Of a DNA stretch of 64,000 nucleotides, positions 2,641 to 12,093 are shown in pieces. Every line of letters starts with the position of its first letter. Position 1 is the stretch's first letter. Source of the DNA: a virus; IMG/VR virus record IMGVR_UViG_3300025150_000004, positions 1 to 64,000 of that record; one strand, written 5' to 3'. Both the position numbers and the translations under genes were made by a program. The notes below the pieces were generated by a model, which saw nothing but the letters and a program-made list of their open reading frames with translations, was not told the DNA's origin and made no database searches.

Positions 2641-3153
2641 CTAGTCAACTTTCGGAGTGACGATGCCTCGGGCCAAATGATCGACCCGTTGCAGTAGGGC
2701 AGGTAGCCGGTGTCTCCCGGCCATCTGCCTCACCCCAAGAGCGGCTTCTGGTGCTGAAATCCCGGCTGCTGTCACGAACAGCGGTCGGGCACTGACTCCC
2801 CGAAGAACCTCCTCTGCGTCGGTTCCAGGGAAAAAAGACTTGGCGACCCCCACCACAGGGACCTTCCCATCCAAGTACTCGAACAGGTGCCGGCCGAGGC
2901 CCGGTTTCCCAACCCCCAGGTCCACGTATCCGTCCACGATGATGCACCCGAGGGGGTCAGAGATCAGGTCGAGGATGGCGGTGATGCAGGGGAGTTCTCG
3001 TTTGTAGAACGCACCGGGCTCGTACTCGGCGACGTTGGCTACCTCGATGACCCACTCCTGTCGAGCCGGGTTCGACGACCACCCCTCGAACAGGACGGCT
3101 GCAACCTTGGCTGCTTTGTCCTCTCCGTACTGGGCGTCGATGGCGATGAACAT
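2641..3153 (-). CDS. nfi: Endonuclease V
   Basis: AIDAQY, YEPGAFYKRELPC, IVDGY and VGVAK motifs. Confidence 0.85.
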   Translation of the reverse strand: MFIAIDAQYGEDKAAKVAAVLFEGWSSNPARQEWVIEVANVAEYEPGAFYKRELPCITAILDLISDPLGCIIVDGYVDLGVGKPGLGRHLFEYLDGKVPVVGVAKSFFPGTDAEEVLRGVSARPLFVTAAGISAPEAALGVRQMAGRHRLPALLQRVDHLARGIVTPKVD

Positions 3154-3191
3154 GAGATTCCTGATGGAACCCTACCCTGCACCAAAGGAAA

Positions 3192-3266
3192 TGACCCTAG
3201 AGGGAGTTGAACCCTGCTTCTCCGCCGTGAGAGGGCGGTATCCTACCAGTCGTAGACGATAGGGCC
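3192..3266 (-). tRNA. trnE: tRNA-Glu(CTC)
   Basis: Cloverleaf; anticodon arm CCGCC-CTCTCAC-GGCGG. Confidence 0.9.
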
Positions 3267-3269
3267 AGA

Positions 3270-3377
3270 TTATTTTGACGTCTTGCAATAGGACTGTTTC
3301 TCTACCCGACCTCTCCTTGTTTTCAGGGAGAAGTCGTCTTCCTCTTTGGCGGTTTTACACCCACTGCACCATTTCAT
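3270..3377 (-). pseudogene. Truncated HNH-endonuclease-type Zn-finger remnant (35 aa, MKWCSGCK...SYCK)
   Basis: CxxC N-terminus like the other array HNH genes; own TTGACT-17-TATCCT promoter 6 nt before ATG. Confidence 0.6.
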
Positions 3378-3428
3378 GGGGTTAGGATACCCTCTATGGG
3401 TTCCCAAGTCAAGCCTTGTCTTGAGGGG

Positions 3429-3447
3429 CCAGCTAGACGACAGGGAC
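3429..3447 (-). pseudogene. 5' fragment of a tRNA-Glu-like gene
   Basis: GTCCCTGTCGTCTAGCTGG starts 1 nt after the tRNA-Thr CCA and breaks off at the HNH remnant. Confidence 0.55.
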
Positions 3448-3448
3448 A

Positions 3449-3524
3449 TGGAGCCGGCGGTCGGACTCGAACCGACTGCCTCTGCTTTACGAAAGCAGTG
3501 CTCTACCAGGTGAGCTACGCCGGC
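3449..3524 (-). tRNA. trnT: tRNA-Thr(CGT)
   Basis: Cloverleaf; CTGCT-TTCGTAA-AGCAG; encoded CCA. Confidence 0.95.
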
Positions 3525-3775
3525 AGGTTGTGGGCCGTGATTTCGACCACCCTGGTCAAAAACCAGGCGTGGCCCATCTTCTCTTCGATCTTCAGGAGGC
3601 GTTGGACCACGGCGTCCACCACTTCCCGTTTGTGGTCGGGGTTCTGCTGGGCAATTTGGGCTCCGAGGTAGGTGAGCCCCTTGACCAGCCGGTCGGTTTT
3701 GACTTCGTCGTTGGCCTGCTGGATCAGCCGATCAAAGCTATCCAACTCGGCGCCCCAGTATTCCATCGTGAACAT
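3515..3775 (-). CDS. Hypothetical protein inside the tRNA array; stop codon lies within tRNA-Thr
   Basis: AGGAGG upstream of ATG 3775; typical codon bias. Confidence 0.6.
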   Translation of the reverse strand: MFTMEYWGAELDSFDRLIQQANDEVKTDRLVKGLTYLGAQIAQQNPDHKREVVDAVVQRLLKIEEKMGHAWFLTRVVEITAHNLPA

Positions 3776-3862
3776 GGCACCTGGACACCTCCTACTCGAT
3801 CGGAGATGACCATCGGAAGAACACCGTCCCGCAGACCTTGCACCGTCGGTCTTTCGGCCGAG

Positions 3863-3937
3863 AGCCCCCGACAGGAGTTGAACCTGCAAACCTTCGGTTT
3901 ACAAAACCGTTGCTCTACCAGATTGAGCTACAGGGGC
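3863..3937 (-). tRNA. trnT: tRNA-Thr(TGT)
   Basis: Cloverleaf; loop TTTGTAA. Confidence 0.9.
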
Positions 3938-3944
3938 ATCTGAG

Positions 3945-4017
3945 AGCCGACGGCGGGATTCGAACCCGCTACCTCAGTCTTACCAAGACTGCGCTCTACC
4001 TATTGAGCTACGACGGC
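3945..4017 (-). tRNA. trnT: tRNA-Thr(GGT)
   Basis: Cloverleaf; CAGTC-TTGGTAA-GACTG. Confidence 0.95.
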
Positions 4018-4142
4018 AGATTGTGGCCTTTCGCTGCGCCCTCGGCCACTGCGGGCTCCAAACTCCCCAGGGTGCGTACTGTGCCCCAAGTTGGACAGCG
4101 ATTTCGGGTCCAGTTGACCTTCGGGATGGACCCGATTTGGAG

Positions 4143-4224
4143 TGCGGACGGAGGGAGTTGAACCCTCAATCCTCGTGGGCACTGGGTTTTGAGTCCAGCG
4201 TGTATACCGTTCCACCACGTCCGC
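4143..4224 (-). tRNA. trnL: tRNA-Leu(CAA)
   Basis: Class II cloverleaf; loop CTCAAAA. Confidence 0.9.
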
Positions 4225-4296
4225 AGATGACGACCCGTAGCCGGGATTCTGTTCTATGAGCCCATTCGTCTATTGGCCCCAACCCGCCCATTGTGA

Positions 4297-4929
4297 TTAG
4301 GCGAGCGTCCACCCCTTGTGGTGTTTTCGCTGACCGGAGAACAACAACTGCATCCCCTGTCGGGTCAGTTCGTGTTCTGTACAAAAAGCTGACAATGAGG
4401 GTCGAACCTGCATTAGATCCCCCGACGGGGACTTGACCTGGGGGTACGGGCTCCTCCGTTTCGAGAAACTAATCTTGGCCCGATCTTCGGTGCTCGGGGG
4501 CGTCTTCCGCCCTCCCGAACACACGGCGTTCCTGTTGCCTTTCATCTTCTCGGAGATCTTCCGCTTGGTTGCGGCTGACAGCGTGAACCCTCGGCAACTC
4601 CCGGCCTCGTTCAGAATGTTGTAACACTTCTCCTTTGATGTTCTGTCCAGCCACGCCTGTTCTTCCGACAGAAGGTCATCCGGTCCCACCCAAGCGAGGA
4701 CTGTGAAAAGGAACTCCCCCTCGCCGTACTTGTTGTAGGCGTTCTGTAGGGGGTTGTTAGGGTGGATACCTGCCCGGAGCCGGGCTCGGTGCTGGGTAAG
4801 CCTTCGGTAGAGGTCTGCCGTGGATCCAATGTACCTTTTGCCCGATGGGGTGTGGGAGATCTTGTAGATCCCGCTTTTGCGGGCAAGGGCTTTGTAGGCC
4901 GAGCCGCCAAGGTTGGTGTCTACGTTCAC
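4297..4929 (-). CDS. GIY-YIG homing endonuclease with NUMOD-like DNA-binding repeats
   Basis: SGIYKI...RYIGST...R...H...LQNAYNKYG...E...YN motif series; NUMOD3-like TKRKISE. Confidence 0.9.
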   Translation of the reverse strand: MNVDTNLGGSAYKALARKSGIYKISHTPSGKRYIGSTADLYRRLTQHRARLRAGIHPNNPLQNAYNKYGEGEFLFTVLAWVGPDDLLSEEQAWLDRTSKEKCYNILNEAGSCRGFTLSAATKRKISEKMKGNRNAVCSGGRKTPPSTEDRAKISFSKRRSPYPQVKSPSGDLMQVRPSLSAFCTEHELTRQGMQLLFSGQRKHHKGWTLA

Positions 4930-4935
4930 ACTGCC

Positions 4936-4964
4936 AGTTTACGATGTTGCTGTTTGGGTTGCAA
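4936..4964 (-). promoter_or_regulatory. Sigma70-type promoter of the GIY-YIG gene (leaderless)
   Basis: TTGCAA-17-TAAACT, 6 nt before GTG. Confidence 0.65.
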
Positions 4965-5090
4965 CCTTTTGAGTACCTGAGAATTGCATCCTCGGAAGTG
5001 CAAACGGCTGGTCGGCCTCCTTCCTTCAGCGGTGATGTCCCGAGCTTCCTCACATCCTCCGGGGAGGGTAGTGCGGGCTCTCGGTCGTCG

Positions 5091-5169
5091 TGCCGGGGAG
5101 GGGAGTCGAACCCCTACGCCTGAGCGCCTGGCTCTAAACCAGGTGTGTCTACCGTTCCACCACCCCGGC
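5091..5169 (-). tRNA. trnL: tRNA-Leu(TAG)
   Basis: CCTGG-TTTAGAG-CCAGG; variable arm. Confidence 0.9.
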
Positions 5170-5175
5170 TCATCG

Positions 5176-5260
5176 TGCTGGGAGGGGGACTCGAACCCCC
5201 ACGCCCCCGAAGGGCACCTCGCTTTAAGGGAGGCACGTCTACCTGTTCCGACATCCCAGC
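5176..5260 (-). tRNA. trnL: tRNA-Leu(TAA)
   Basis: Loop CTTAAAG; long variable arm; A73. Confidence 0.85.
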
Positions 5261-5262
5261 GA

Positions 5263-5345
5263 TGCCCGGACCGGGGGTCGAACCCGGACGCCTCGTGAGC
5301 GGGGGTCTATAAGGCCCCTGCGTCTACCAGTTCCGCCATCCGGGC
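5263..5345 (-). tRNA. tRNA with TAT (Ile AUA) anticodon on a Leu-type class II body
   Basis: GGGGC-CTTATAG-ACCCC; D arm GGCGGAACTGGTAGACGC; long variable arm; A73. Confidence 0.8.
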
Positions 5346-5348
5346 TTG

Positions 5349-5864
5349 CTATCCGAAGTACCTCTCCCACCAGTTCGCTGGGAGTTGCCTCTCCAGCGAG
5401 GTCAACTCGGCTGTCAGGACTTTCCCCTCATGAACCAGCCGGTGACAGTTGGGACAGATGTAAGCCAGGTTCTTGTGGTTGTTCGGGTCGTGGACCTTTC
5501 TCCCATGGATGTGGTGGATGTCCCCAGTCCCATCGTCCCAACCGCATCTTGAGCACTGGAGACCGAGTCGGCGAAGCAGCTTGCGGCTAGTCCTGGCCGA
5601 CATGTCCAAGATCGACTTGGGTTTCCGCCCAGAAGCCACCGCTCGCCCCACAGTCTGTTGGTGGGCGACAGAACCCTTCAAAGGGCTGGGCCTTCCCCTC
5701 AAGGTTTGGCTAATCCGAGTTTTCCGCTCATCCGACAACACTCGACCCCTCTGGGTGTGGGAGGCGGAGCAGGACAGCGAGCAGTATTTCTGCCGAGGAT
5801 CCTTGGGGACAAAAAGCACTTCACATTCCCCGCACGGCTTCTCTGGGTAAGGGCGCTTTCTCAT
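5349..5864 (-). CDS. HNH homing endonuclease
   Basis: CGEC, YCSLSC and CSRCG...IHHIHG...NLAYICPNCHRLVH; TTGACA-16-TATCCT promoter at 5873-5900. Confidence 0.85.
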   Translation of the reverse strand: MRKRPYPEKPCGECEVLFVPKDPRQKYCSLSCSASHTQRGRVLSDERKTRISQTLRGRPSPLKGSVAHQQTVGRAVASGRKPKSILDMSARTSRKLLRRLGLQCSRCGWDDGTGDIHHIHGRKVHDPNNHKNLAYICPNCHRLVHEGKVLTAELTSLERQLPANWWERYFG

Positions 5865-5901
5865 GGTCCCCCAGGATAGTGAGCCGAACCGAGGTGTCAA
5901 G

Positions 5902-5986
5902 TGGAGCAGGGAGGACTTGAACCTCCTCGCCTCGTCAGAGGGCCAGATTTACAGTCTGGTGGGCCAGCCAGTTGCCCATCTGCTCC
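5902..5986 (-). tRNA. trnY: tRNA-Tyr(GTA)
   Basis: CCAGA-CTGTAAA-TCTGG; long variable arm. Confidence 0.9.
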
Positions 5987-5995
5987 ATATTCCAG

Positions 5996-6066
5996 TGCCC
6001 CGATAGGGCTCGAATCCATGTCTCCGGCTTTTCAGGCCAGCGCTACTCCATCTCAGCTACAGGCGC
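5996..6066 (-). pseudogene. Degenerate tRNA-Phe(GAA)
   Basis: Loop CTGAAAA, but mispaired acceptor and T stems. Confidence 0.6.
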
Positions 6067-6081
6067 TCCTCCATGTTCCAG

Positions 6082-6154
6082 TGCCGAGGGAAGGAGTCGA
6101 ACCTTCGACGCCCAGTTCTTCAGACTGGCGCTCTACCACCTGAGCTACCTCGGC
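6082..6154 (-). tRNA. trnF: tRNA-Phe(GAA)
   Basis: Canonical cloverleaf; CCAGT-CTGAAGA-ACTGG. Confidence 0.95.
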
Positions 6155-6160
6155 ATGAAG

Positions 6161-6234
6161 TGGACCGAGCAGGACTTGAACCTGCAACACCTGAGATTTC
6201 ACCTCAGTGCTCTACGCAATTGAGCTATCGATCC
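6161..6234 (-). tRNA. Atypical tRNA with GAA in the loop (Phe-like)
   Basis: Intact stems; loop GTGAAAT (G32, U38); D loop lacks G18G19. Confidence 0.65.
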
Positions 6235-6240
6235 ATGGAG

Positions 6241-6312
6241 CAGGCTGCCGAGGAATCGAACCCCGCATACCGCCGGATTTGGAGTCCAGCGAGCTTACCC
6301 AGAGCGCAGCCT
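6241..6312 (-). tRNA. trnW: tRNA-Trp(CCA) with a reduced D arm
   Basis: A1-U72, G73; CTGGA-CTCCAAA-TCCGG; short D region. Confidence 0.75.
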
Positions 6313-6316
6313 ACAG

Positions 6317-6402
6317 TGCCGAAGGCGGGATTCGAACCCGCACGCCCGCAAGGGGGCACTGGCCTCTCAGACCAGCGTGTCTACCAGCTTCACCACTTCG
6401 GC
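6317..6402 (-). tRNA. trnL: tRNA-Leu(GAG)
   Basis: Loop CTGAGAG; class II. Confidence 0.9.
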
Positions 6403-6403
6403 G

Positions 6404-6540
6404 TGGCAGGGGGTGAAGGAATCGAACCTCCAGCTTGCTTGTATGCTCGTCGTCGGTTCTCCCCGAGGGGAGAGAGTTCGAGAGCGGGTTCGCAGTTTGA
6501 ACTGGTTTTGGTGACCAGCTTCCGCCCAGCGGAACCCCCT
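6404..6540 (-). ncRNA. Extended tRNA-like RNA, Trp (CCA) loop, with conserved inserted domain
   Basis: Acceptor AGGGGGT/ACCCCCT-G-CCA; T arm; loop CACCAAA; ~70-nt insert. Confidence 0.75.
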
Positions 6541-6579
6541 ATAGGTGCCCTTGTTTTCACCTCCACGGGCCGGAGGAAG

Positions 6580-6723
6580 AGACGGGGGTAGGAGTCGAAC
6601 CTACTGTGCTTGTATGCTCGGCGCTGATGCTCCCGGCCCCGAAGGGTAGGAGCGAGTCCGTGAGCGGGATCTGCATTTGCAGACTGGTTTACGGCCAGTT
6701 GCCCTCCACAGGGCGTCCCCGTC
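6580..6723 (-). ncRNA. Extended tRNA-like RNA, Tyr (GTA) loop, with conserved inserted domain
   Basis: Acceptor GACGGGG/CCCCGTC; T arm; loop CCGTAAA; ~75-nt insert. Confidence 0.75.
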
Positions 6724-6746
6724 AAAGTTTCTCCCGTTGGGAGAAG

Positions 6747-6828
6747 TGCAGAAGGAGGGAGTCGAACCCTCACCCTCATAGAGGACTAGGCTCTGAACCT
6801 AGCGTGTCTACCGTTTCACCACTTCTGC
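6747..6828 (-). tRNA. trnL: tRNA-Leu(CAG)
   Basis: CTAGG-TTCAGAG-CCTAG; class II. Confidence 0.9.
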
Positions 6829-7333
6829 GTGCCTGACCTGTCCATCCTTCAAAAAGCCCCATTTCACGGGCCTCCCGCATCCCTTTCGCCACCACCAACC
6901 AGGCTTCGTGAGGCATGTCCCTGCGGGTGTAGTTGCAGCGGATGCAGGCAGAGATCACGTTGTCCTGTGTGTGCCCCTTCGAGTTGTCGATCCGATCCAG
7001 GGTCATCCTGATCCCGTTTTCGCCGCAGTAGGAGCAGCCTTTGGCGATCTCCTCTGCGATGAACTCACGGGTAAGGTCGTTCTCCCGACCGTTCTTCCGA
7101 TCCGAACGCCGGGTGTCCACCAGGATCCATTTCTCAGTATCTAGTCCCGCTGCCCTCCTTTGTTTCCGTCGCCGTTCCACCCGTTTGGTGGCTTCGGACC
7201 CTTCTGGAGTGGCTCTCCACTCTCGACTAGCTTTCGCTTTGCAGTCAAGACAACGGGAGCGGGTGTACCCTTTTCCGTTGGAATTGGAGGTCTCAAGCCG
7301 ATCTGCCGACCCACATTGACGACAGGTTCTCAT
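6776..7333 (-). CDS. HNH homing endonuclease; reads 53 nt into tRNA-Leu(CAG)
   Basis: CRQC, CLDC and CSYCG...LDRIDNSKGH..DNV..C..CN; extended -10 TGcTACGTT 6 nt before ATG. Confidence 0.85.
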   Translation of the reverse strand: MRTCRQCGSADRLETSNSNGKGYTRSRCLDCKAKASREWRATPEGSEATKRVERRRKQRRAAGLDTEKWILVDTRRSDRKNGRENDLTREFIAEEIAKGCSYCGENGIRMTLDRIDNSKGHTQDNVISACIRCNYTRRDMPHEAWLVVAKGMREAREMGLFEGWTGQARRSGETVDTLGSEPSPL

Positions 7334-7370
7334 AGTGGGAACGTAGCACATTTCTCCCCGTTCCCACAAG

Positions 7371-7460
7371 CGGAAGGACCGAGGGTCGAACTCGGAAGGC
7401 CCTTTCGGGCTCGACGGTTTAGCAAACCGTTGCCATCGCCTGCTGTTGGCTCGCCCTTCC
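7371..7460 (-). tRNA. trnS: tRNA-Ser(GCT)
   Basis: ACGGT-TTGCTAA-ACCGT; long variable arm; G73. Confidence 0.9.
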
Positions 7461-7529
7461 AGAACATGGAGTCCCGCTACCCTCGGTTCTCAGGTTGTCC
7501 ACCGTGCAGGTGGTTCCGACTCCAATCAG

Positions 7530-7617
7530 CGGAGAGAGGGGGAGTCGAACCCCCAAGGCCCTCATCAGGCTCAACCGGCTTCCAACCGGGTCCCGTCGCC
7601 AATCGGGTTGCCTCTCC
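7530..7617 (-). tRNA. trnS: tRNA-Ser(GGA)
   Basis: Loop TTGGAAG; class II; G73. Confidence 0.9.
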
Positions 7618-7620
7618 AGG

Positions 7621-7761
7621 CGGGGATGGCAGGACTCGAACCTGCAAATGCTTGTAGGCTCTTCGAGGGTCCTCCCCTGGTCGGGGGAGGGAGTTCGTGA
7701 GCAGGAACGCTTACACGTCGGTTTTTCTGACCGATGCCTTTACCAGTTAGGCTACATCCCC
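7621..7761 (-). ncRNA. Extended tRNA-like RNA, Phe (GAA) loop, with conserved inserted domain
   Basis: Acceptor GGGGATG/CATCCCC; normal D and T arms; loop CAGAAAA; ~70-nt insert. Confidence 0.75.
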
Positions 7762-7791
7762 ATGTTGTCCTCCCCTGGCGGGGGAGGGCAG

Positions 7792-7879
7792 CGGAAGGAG
7801 GGAGAGTCGAACTCCCAAGGCGCTCATCACGCTCGTCCGGGTTCGAGCCGGGTGCCGTCGCCAATCGGCTTGCCCTTCC
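7792..7879 (-). tRNA. trnS: tRNA-Ser(CGA)
   Basis: Loop CTCGAAC; class II; G73. Confidence 0.9.
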
Positions 7880-7883
7880 AAAG

Positions 7884-7965
7884 TGCGGTCGGGGAGAGTC
7901 GAACTCCCACGCCTGTTAGGCACAACGCCCTCAACGTTGCGTGTCTACCATTCCACCACGACCGC
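7884..7965 (-). tRNA. trnL: tRNA-Leu(GAG), first gene of the array
   Basis: CAACG-TTGAGGG-CGTTG; class II. Confidence 0.9.
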
Positions 7966-10461: not shown

Positions 10462-12093
10462 ATGAACTACCAGATCGACCTGAAGACAAAAGCCGTCACC
10501 GTTCACAAGGGGGCCGAGGCCCGCAAGCGGCTGCTGGAAGGGGCCAAGACCCTGGCCAAGTGCGTGGCCGTGACCTACGGCCCAGGCGGCCGGGTGGTCA
10601 TGCTCGACCGGGCCGTGGGGCTGCTGGCGACCAAGGACGGCGTGACCGTCGCCCGTGAGATCGACGTAGAAGATCCGGTGGCCAACCTCGGCTGCCAGAT
10701 CCTCAAGACGGCCTGCATCAGGGTCAACGACGACGTGGGTGATGGGACGACCTCGACGGCCATCGTGTCGGCGGCCCTTCTCGAAGAGGGGCAGAAGGTT
10801 ATCGCCGGGGGCATGGCCCCCATCGAGATCCTCCGTGGTGTCCAGGCGGCGGCCCAGCGATGCTACGAAGTCATCGAGAGCCTGGCTTCGCCGGTGGAGG
10901 ACCAGGCCCTTCTCGAACGGGTGGCCATGATCGCCAGCAACGGTGATGTGGAGGTGTCCCAGAAAATGGCCGAGGCGTGCATGGCCGTGGGCAACGACGG
11001 CACGCTGACCATCGAGGACGGCAACTCCGTGGGCATCGAACTCCAGTTCAAGGAGGGGATGGAGATCGACCGGGGGGCGGCATCCCAGCACTTCCTCGGG
11101 ACGCTGAACGAGCGGGTCCTCGAAGGACCCCTCGTGGCCGTCATCGGGGCGGACCTGCGGACGGTGGACGATGTGCGGGGCGTGATGGAGGTCGCCTCCC
11201 AGTGGCCCAACCACGAACTGCTCATCATCGCCCAGTCCATCGAAGGTGACGCCCTCAAGACGATGCTGATGAACGACACCAAGGACGTGATGAAGTGCGT
11301 CGGCATCAACTCCCCAGGCTTCCACGACAGGAAGAAGGAGATCCTCAAGGACATCGCTGCCCTCACCGGGGCGGACTACGCCGAACCCACCCTCGGGTAC
11401 GACCTCGCCAACTGGGACCCCGAGTGGTTCGGAGGTCTCCGCAAGGCCACGGTCGAGGCGAAGAAAACGGTGTTCGTCGCCTACGACGAGGCGGAGGAAC
11501 TGGTCGAGGAGCGGATCAAGCACCTCAAAGCGGAGAAGCGACACGCCAAGAGCGAGTACGATACTGACAAGCTCAACGAGCGGATCGCCAAGCTCTCCGG
11601 CGGCCTGTGCATCATGCAGGTTGGGGGCTACACCGAGACGGAGATGAGGGAGCGGCGAGCCCGGATCGAGGACGCCCTCGGTTCTGTCCGTGCCGCCCTG
11701 GCCGAGGGAGTGGTTCCCGGGGCCGCCTCGGCCTATCACTACTGCGCCGCCATGCTCCTGCTGGACCTGGATGCAGGGGAGGCCGAGGGCAGCATGGAGT
11801 TCATGACCGGGTGGCGGATCCTGGCCAAGGCGCTCCAGAAGCCGTTGGAGGTCATCGCCTCCAACGCCGGGCATCCGTCGGCGTACACGGCTCAACTCCT
11901 GCTCGACGGCTACAAGTCCGGTGAGATGAGCCCTTGGCAGGGGTGGGACGCCGAGACCGGGGGCGTCCGCAGCCTCGACGAGGACCCGGCCGTCGTGGAC
12001 CCCGTGGCCGTCGTGCGCTCGGTCATCGAGGCGTCCACCTCCGCCGCCGGGACGCTGCTCACCGTGGAGGCCAGCCTGTCCAAGGGGGGCTGA
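10462..12093 (+). CDS. groEL: GroEL-like chaperonin
   Basis: VTYGPGGR, TKDGVTVA, GDGTTS, ERIAKLSGG and GVVPG motifs. Confidence 0.95.
   Translation: MNYQIDLKTKAVTVHKGAEARKRLLEGAKTLAKCVAVTYGPGGRVVMLDRAVGLLATKDGVTVAREIDVEDPVANLGCQILKTACIRVNDDVGDGTTSTAIVSAALLEEGQKVIAGGMAPIEILRGVQAAAQRCYEVIESLASPVEDQALLERVAMIASNGDVEVSQKMAEACMAVGNDGTLTIEDGNSVGIELQFKEGMEIDRGAASQHFLGTLNERVLEGPLVAVIGADLRTVDDVRGVMEVASQWPNHELLIIAQSIEGDALKTMLMNDTKDVMKCVGINSPGFHDRKKEILKDIAALTGADYAEPTLGYDLANWDPEWFGGLRKATVEAKKTVFVAYDEAEELVEERIKHLKAEKRHAKSEYDTDKLNERIAKLSGGLCIMQVGGYTETEMRERRARIEDALGSVRAALAEGVVPGAASAYHYCAAMLLLDLDAGEAEGSMEFMTGWRILAKALQKPLEVIASNAGHPSAYTAQLLLDGYKSGEMSPWQGWDAETGGVRSLDEDPAVVDPVAVVRSVIEASTSAAGTLLTVEASLSKGG

Follow-up and report, generated by a model that had tools for sequence, protein, structure and literature searches.

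RNase P RNA is a universal cellular ribozyme. In class A enzymes, the GGU of L15 contacts the 3' end of the tRNA (3'-CCA), and the adenosines of J5/15 contact the N-1 position of the substrate. The type T RNase P RNA of the Thermoproteaceae (Pyrobaculum; Rfam RNaseP-T) has reportedly lost nearly all of the specificity domain and is said to be active. T4-like phages reportedly carry free-standing GIY-YIG endonucleases, the Seg proteins, and SegB is said to lie in the tRNA gene region of T4. In bacterial 23S rRNA, intervening sequences are excised by RNase III without re-ligation, and the resulting fragments are held together by base pairing. Here we describe a locus in the first 64 kb (hereafter, the window: 64,000 nt in full) of the 142,891-bp IMG/VR virus record IMGVR_UViG_3300025150_000004. 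The element, an 861-nt gene in a phage tRNA array, is almost certainly a miniaturised class-A-type RNase P RNA, judged from its sequence and that of its relatives. Our explanation, which we consider probable, is that this phage mini class-A-type RNase P RNA gene was invaded by a GIY-YIG homing endonuclease gene of the free-standing type.

Results

Structure of the element

The positions of the structural parts are collected in Table 1. A script check found every pair of P1, P2, P3, P4, P5, the S-domain (specificity domain) stub and P15 to be standard in the window. The same check confirmed P1, P2, P3 and the P4 pseudoknot as an earlier note on this DNA had placed them, together with conserved regions (CR) IV and V. 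CR-I GAGGAAGCUCGGGA, CR-IV UAGACGAAUG and CR-V ACAGAAUCCCGGCUA occur in class-A order. Moreover, all nucleotides that are invariant in the mini family are kept in the window, including GCAA of J5/15 at 4962-4959 and GGGU of L15 at 4285-4282; the invariant strings are GCAA..CAAACAG and CGGGU, the latter aligning to CGGGUa of RF00010 in L069, an insert-free relative described below.

The specificity domain P7-P14 is missing, merely ~45 nt lying between the two strands of P5. P18 is absent from the window, as the earlier note had observed, and from the whole mini family. Several details of that note need revision. What it took for a tiny hairpin, UCA-CCGC-UGA, is a conserved two-helix stub of ~45 nt enclosed by P5, in which CCGCU is a strand of P6 in relatives. 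P15 is formed by CCCA/UGGG and not by GGCC/GGCC, the first GGCC belonging to the stub, and the GGU lies at 4284-4282. The RNA core comprises ~200 nt rather than 175 nt. The S-domain is indeed reduced; since a conserved stub remains, the term "catalytic-domain-only" is slightly too strong.

Table 1. Coordinates of the RNase P RNA element, its endonuclease cassette and neighbouring or related features (window positions unless another locus is named)
Feature	Position	Strand	Details
Whole gene, reduced class-A-type RNase P RNA with endonuclease cassette	4229-5089	minus	861 nt
P1	5089-5083 / 4235-4229	minus	GACGACC / GGUCGUC; 7/7 standard pairs
P2	5080-5075 / 4263-4258	minus	GAGCCC / GGGCUC; fully paired
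P3, two-part hairpin	5073-5071/5053-5051 + 5067-5064/5059-5056	minus	CAC..GUG; CCUC..GAGG
CR-I / J3-4 + P4 5' strand	5052-5038	minus	GAGGAAGCUCGGGA; invariant in mini family
P4 pseudoknot	5046-5038 / 4246-4239	minus	AGC-U-CGGGA / UCCCGGCU; 8 standard pairs, U5043 bulged
P5	5037-5034 / 4990-4987	minus	CAUC / GAUG; encloses S-domain stub
S-domain stub, ~45 nt	outer helix 5024-5020/4998-4994, inner hairpin 5017-5015/5008-5006	minus	
J5/15 insertion, 25 nt	4986-4962	minus	absent from L069, L071, L073, L062
J5/15 CAA + P15 5' strand + L15 5' side	4961-4950	minus	P15 strand CCCA (4958-4955); L15 side AACAG
Homing-endonuclease cassette replacing P16/P17	~4949-4286	minus	~660 nt; from pairwise alignment with L069
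GIY-YIG homing endonuclease ORF (open reading frame)	4297-4929	minus	210 aa, GTG start, intact
L15 GGGU + P15 3' strand UGGG	4285-4278	minus	GGGU 4285-4282; UGGG 4281-4278
P15	4958-4955 / 4281-4278	minus	CCCA / UGGG
CR-IV, P2 3' strand, J2/4 CR-V, P4 3' strand	4272-4239	minus	CR-IV UAGACGAAUG 4272-4263; CR-V AUAGAACAGAA (ACAGAA); P4 UCCCGGCU
tRNA array, 17 tRNA genes	3191-7965	minus	
Free-standing HNH endonuclease gene, between tRNA-Ile(tat) and tRNA-Tyr	5349-5900	minus	Pfam 5.4e-5, PHROG 3e-13
Transposase-like ORF, endonuclease V-like ORF and GroEL-like chaperonin, flanking the tRNA array	70-1413, 2641-3153, 10462-12093 (together)		
Mini RNase P RNA of LR756502.1	L101 1483-1689 (~614.6 kb of genome)		R1 48.6 bits

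Homology and covariation

The Rfam model of bacterial class A RNase P RNA, RF00010 (RNaseP_bact_a), matched the insert-free allele L069 end to end, with 45.6 bits (E 2.7e-13). P1/P2, P3, CR-I, P5, GCAA, P15, P16/17, GGGUA, CR-IV and CR-V were matched, GAGGAAGCUCGGGA of CR-I/P4 corresponds to GAGGAAAGUCCGGg of RF00010, and the alignment skips the S-domain (~140 model positions, ~73-213) and P18; no other Rfam match was listed for L069. The earlier note had asked for such a search with the insert removed, and this natural allele supplies it; by E value the outcome is positive for homology, and the score remains below the gathering score of the model. For an independent view, a covariance model, R1, was built from ten insert-free mini forms (alignment A2, window excluded). 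R1 matched both halves of the window element in the right order, at 4225-4349 (28.7 bits, E 4e-6; 24.3-28.7 bits across searches) and at 4898-5085 (14.5 bits, E 0.05), the E values referring to 454 kb searched; it had no other match in the 143-kb record. Insert-free alleles score 107-113 bits with R1 (L069, 113), which additionally recognises L026, L008 and L012, phage class-A RNAs verified by Rfam (158-189 bits with RF00010).

Covariation pointed in the same direction. When the MAFFT alignment A2 was scored for P1, P2, P3, P4 (as a pseudoknot), P5, the stub, P15 and P16, 91.4% of cells were paired and 30 of the 52 pairs changed on both sides; none of 500 shuffles reached the observed value, and slid controls gave 32-44%. 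Aligning 22 sequences to the model gave 92.6% paired cells, with changes on both sides at 37 of the 44 pairs. By helix, covariation was found at 10/11 pairs of P1, 7/7 of P2 (alignment A3), 4/5 of P5 and 4/6 of the stub. P4 is invariant in the ten- and 22-sequence sets and has four compensated pairs in the uncultured phage genome LR756502.1.

The results that speak against this identity come from Rfam. The window has no RNase P match at the gathering score, nor does 4200-5120 at E<=10, and the 45.6 bits of L069 are far below the 100 bits at which RF00010 gathers its members. A search of the whole 143-kb record with RF00010 was likewise negative. On these grounds one might regard the RNase P likeness as a chance resemblance of the spacers on either side of an ordinary free-standing endonuclease gene. 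However, Rfam at E<=0.1 also returned no RNase P match for five insert-free mini forms; since in large searches it misses most such forms, a missing Rfam match cannot refute the RNase P reading. The E value of the insert-free allele, the strong covariation of the family and the matches of an independent model to both halves leave chance a negligible probability, and the structural match of the window is far beyond chance. Homology and covariation thus agree in identifying a phage-encoded RNase P RNA with a reduced S-domain, as the earlier note had proposed. The element falls outside the standard membership of RF00010, lacking two defining parts and scoring below threshold; its descent from class-A RNase P RNA is clear.

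An endonuclease cassette in place of P16/P17

Insert-free alleles of the window subfamily, which the earlier note had advised seeking among relatives, were recovered by a metagenome scan as L069, L071, L073/L074 and L075. L069 (5436-5641, minus) is 92.8% identical to the window in the 5' half and 91.4% in the 3' half, and is syntenic with it (Thr, Thr, Thr, Leu-caa, RNA, Leu-tag, Leu-taa, Ile, Tyr, Phe, Phe). The two differ by two insertions, namely the 25 nt in J5/15 and the ~660-nt cassette, which stands in place of a ~28-nt P16/P17 hairpin. All core substitutions between them are in loops or compensated (P2 A-U to C-G, P3b, inner stub helix), and P3 is remodelled yet still paired in L069 and L062. 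P16, P17 and P6 are present in L069, L073, L075, L059 and L053; in relatives, CYGCU of the J5-stub sequence can pair with AGCRG of the P17 loop to form P6, and one P6 pair covaries by eye (U-A in L075, L059, L053 and L062; C-G in L069, L071 and L073). The earlier note was therefore right to place a GIY-YIG ORF in a P16-like loop, at the P16/P17 position, and its boundary of 4980-4297 is replaced by that in Table 1.

The encoded protein matches PF01541 of Pfam (4.7e-9, residues 19-101) and PHROG 314, "homing endonuclease" (1.2e-19), the latter over residues 18-208, the C-terminal DNA-binding region included. An orthologue occupies the same site in the L062 group (L060, L062, L063, L067 and L068); it has 211 aa, and its gap-free alignment over the full length shows 51% identity. 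A third occurs in L072, where the 5' part only is available (51-54% identical). NUMOD3 was found in the L062 orthologue and in relatives of the endonuclease. More distantly related genes (<=37% identity) are free-standing, with protein genes on either side and no halves of an RNase P RNA close by. The gene is thus present at this site in the window, the L062 group and L072 and absent from L069, L071, L073/L074 and L075. Collinear relatives that differ in whether a single conserved site is occupied are the hallmark of a homing endonuclease.

The sources of many of the protein relatives name them "group I intron endonuclease", and phage group I introns often carry GIY-YIG genes, which raises the question of whether the cassette is itself an intron, group I or otherwise, whose splicing would give a continuous RNA without P16/P17. 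In agreement with the earlier note, which saw no group I core, Rfam at E<=10 on 4200-5120 returned neither Intron_gpI nor any other intron family. Moreover, the DNA of the cassette outside the ORF amounts to ~20 nt before and ~11 nt after it (~31 nt), too little for a ribozyme core, and an inverted-repeat search for its ends found no terminal repeat, only P1 spanning the insert. We therefore consider an intron very improbable.

The earlier note had also placed a promoter within the insert; a sigma-70 promoter and terminator scan of 4100-5400 called none. In all three insert-bearing lineages, a -10-like hexamer (TAAACT, TATCTT or TATACT) precedes the start codon by 6-7 nt, and (T/G)TGCAA stands 17 nt upstream of the hexamer (window 4930-4966, minus; L062 ~2050-2096; L072 ~755-800). 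These matches to 8 of 12 consensus positions, which the consensus scan did not call, suggest a candidate promoter for a leaderless endonuclease mRNA. In the window, the 25-nt J5/15 insertion duplicates GCAA and creates the TTGCAA that stands 17 nt upstream of TAAACT; the insertion is unique within the record and can form a 5-bp hairpin.

Another locus, L036 (7469-8182, plus), has a 212-aa GIY-YIG ORF after which comes only the 3' portion of a phage RNase P RNA (22.7 bits with R1), with no CR-I in the 130 nt upstream. It looks like a truncated, invaded gene.

State of the invaded ribozyme

We lean towards the view that the ribozyme still works with its insert, as one piece or as two. A one-piece RNA would be ~860 nt long, with the ORF looped out of L15, and in a two-piece RNA the halves would be joined through P1, P2, P4 and P15. 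Three endonucleases that are ~50% diverged occupy one site, beside cores that are intact where visible, which argues for persistence of the insert-bearing state. Between the window and L062, the two complete alleles with the insert, the differences in P1, P2 and P5 are compensated.

The principal competing view is that the element is a true RNase P homologue inactivated by the insertion, with the phage relying on host RNase P and the flanks kept only by recency. Much of the evidence for it is at the same time evidence against a working ribozyme. P16 is disrupted in each of the two complete alleles that bear the insert, and the window has lost P17 and the P6 partner, which L062 retains, the stop codon of its endonuclease lying within the P17 loop. 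The 25-nt insertion stands beside the J5/15 adenosines, close to the active site, and could be early decay. Neither constrained folds nor the inverted-repeat search revealed a stem to hold the two ends of the insert together. By the case of L036, invasion can apparently destroy an RNase P gene. The window core is nearer insert-free L069 than insert-bearing L062, as expected of recent homing; the insert may therefore have arrived recently, with the compensated changes possibly dating from before the invasion. Finally, host RNase P presumably makes a phage copy dispensable.

Predicted folds of the whole transcript added little: the unconstrained minimum free energy fold of the 861-nt RNA keeps just P1, P3 and part of P4, and a predicted 14-bp helix over the start codon (4937-4924/4575-4588) is at about chance level.

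However, the family-invariant nucleotides and core helices are all intact in the window, differences from L069 are solely compensated or in loops, and the three diverged endonuclease lineages have intact cores wherever these are visible. Additionally, E. coli RNase P RNA lacking P16/P17 reportedly stays active in vitro. Taken together, we regard an inactivated copy as unlikely, while giving it real weight, and prefer a ribozyme that has survived the invasion.

The tRNA array and its surroundings

On one side of the element lies tRNA-Leu(tag) (5090-5169) and on the other tRNA-Leu(caa) (4142-4224), the two tRNA-Leu genes between which the earlier note had set it. It directly abuts the former, and the latter starts 4 nt downstream. 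The absence of any called promoter or terminator from 4100-5400 fits co-transcription of the element with the array. None of the 17 array tRNA genes encodes the 3'-CCA, so a contact between the L15 GGU and the 3'-CCA would need prior CCA addition. Rfam additionally calls a tRNA-like 141-nt match (7621-7761) and a tRNA (5996-6066), both missed by ARAGORN.

The array also contains a free-standing HNH endonuclease gene (Table 1). In L062, an HNH ORF (2797-3372, plus) starts within the 3' strand of the ribozyme P1, after an apparent 5' half of tRNA-Leu, and a complete tRNA-Leu(tag) follows it at 3367-3447.

The record, with a G+C content of ~63%, is estimated to cover 27% of the genome. The window encodes helicase, clamp-loader, GroEL-like and endonuclease proteins, with the helicase and clamp-loader genes farther from the array; the array-flanking genes and the replication genes fit a very large phage.

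A search for rnpA (PF00825) found none in the 143-kb record, that is, in the estimated 27% of the genome. This is consistent with a plausible dependence of the phage RNA on host RnpA. The same absence could be read differently: the mini RNA would capture host RnpA or pre-tRNA as a decoy, thereby redirecting or inhibiting tRNA processing by the host; the S-domain is missing, and the regions that bind protein in bacterial holoenzymes (P3, CR-IV/V, J2/4) are kept. This we consider improbable, because the whole family keeps the elements for chemistry and docking unchanged (the bulged-U P4, the J5/15 adenosines and the L15 GGU) and the genes always lie among their presumed tRNA substrates.

A family of viral mini RNase P RNAs

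An IMG/VR scan for the CR-IV/CR-V block yielded 51 loci, comprising ordinary bacterial-type copies and a distinct class with the signature GAGGAAG[U/C]UCGGGA and ACAGAA[U/C/A]CCCGGCUA. Full-size members of this class (L026, L019, L012 and L008) lie within phage tRNA arrays, score 158-189 bits with RF00010 and carry the same signature as the mini forms (GAGGAAGUUCGGGA; ACAGAAUCCCGGCUA). L001 is intermediate, with 63 bits, and many members are ~200 nt long and have no Rfam match at E<=0.1. Later scans added further mini forms, and mini-form genes are always located among tRNA genes. A pattern running from CR-I to CAAACAG was true for 20 of its 21 matches in viral contigs. The same pattern gave seven matches in 185,579 prokaryote species genomes, none of them a mini form by R1, and the pattern is thus essentially virus-specific.

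In a phage GenBank collection, the window region as query retrieved tRNA matches only, and the L069 RNA retrieved one match, in the 642-kb uncultured phage LR756502.1, a published genome whose record there has no annotated features. RNase P goes unmentioned in the huge-phage paper from which genomes of the LR756502 type come, and our literature searches turned up no report of an RNase P RNA encoded by a phage, nor of one with an endonuclease inside it. What is new here is a Seg/I-TevI-like endonuclease replacing P16/P17 of a phage mini-ribozyme, together with a matched empty-site allele.

Variants were also seen elsewhere in the class. L029 (11471-12122, minus) is a full-size class-A phage RNase P RNA (118 bits with RF00010 over 650 nt) whose S-domain holds a Cys/His-rich 130-aa ORF (11626-12018) without a Pfam match. 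L006 (7767-8204) and L010 (2231-2748, plus) are mini RNase P RNAs (82-92 bits with R1) with an extra ~200 nt between the P15 3' strand and CR-IV, ending in a tRNA-like T-arm, acceptor stem and CCA.

Discussion

We identified a phage RNA gene at which a reduced RNase P RNA and a homing endonuclease gene share one locus. In the explanation we prefer, the tRNA array would be transcribed as a single precursor, and processing of the abutting tRNAs would free the RNase P RNA. The phage RNA, acting with host RnpA, would then add 5'-leader trimming for the phage's own tRNAs. The cassette would have taken the place of the peripheral P16/P17 hairpin, and the endonuclease would most likely spread by cutting insert-free alleles, such as L069, during co-infection, with repair from the insert-bearing copy.

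A bolder idea, which we put forward tentatively and to which we give less than an even chance, is that the insert-bearing RNA is a working ribozyme that doubles as the messenger, or as part of the promoter, of its own parasite. As messenger, an RNA of ~860 nt would tolerate a translated ORF in place of P16/P17, or the locus would make a natural two-piece RNase P. In the same idea, the endonuclease mRNA would be leaderless, and the -35 element of its promoter would be the ribozyme's own P5/J5-15 sequence.

If active, a half-sized viral RNase P RNA would show how little RNA suffices for tRNA 5' maturation with a bacterial protein, and the ribozyme would join the translation-related functions carried by large phages. 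The near-identical alleles with and without a 660-nt cassette at L15/P16 constitute a natural experiment on activity, on the dispensability of P16/P17 or the working of a split ribozyme, and on homing. Furthermore, standard covariance-model annotation overlooks the mini family and its invaded members, including the copy in LR756502.1.

Several known systems help to place the locus. With bacterial class A RNase P RNA (RF00010; E. coli M1 RNA/rnpB) the element shares P1-P5, the bulged-U P4, CR-I/IV/V, J5/15 GCAA and P15 with the L15 GGU, and relatives of the window share P16/P17 with the P6 pairing. In contrast to class A RNA, the mini family has its S-domain cut to a ~45-nt stub, lacks P18, shows compensated base changes in P4 and is virus-encoded in a tRNA array, and in the window copy P16/P17 has given way to an ORF. 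Type T RNase P RNA offers a parallel in reduction; it is derived from archaeal type A, works with archaeal proteins, is cellular and essential, and is not kin by descent to the phage family. The endonuclease resembles the Seg proteins in being a GIY-YIG and NUMOD-type protein of ~200 aa, encoded in a phage tRNA cluster, alternating between presence and absence, and having no intron. The difference is one of position, Seg genes lying between genes, whereas the window gene occupies the place of a hairpin within the gene of a structural RNA. For a ribozyme working in two pieces, the intervening sequences of 23S rRNA are a possible model, from which the window insert differs in that its ends have no stem of the RNase III type.

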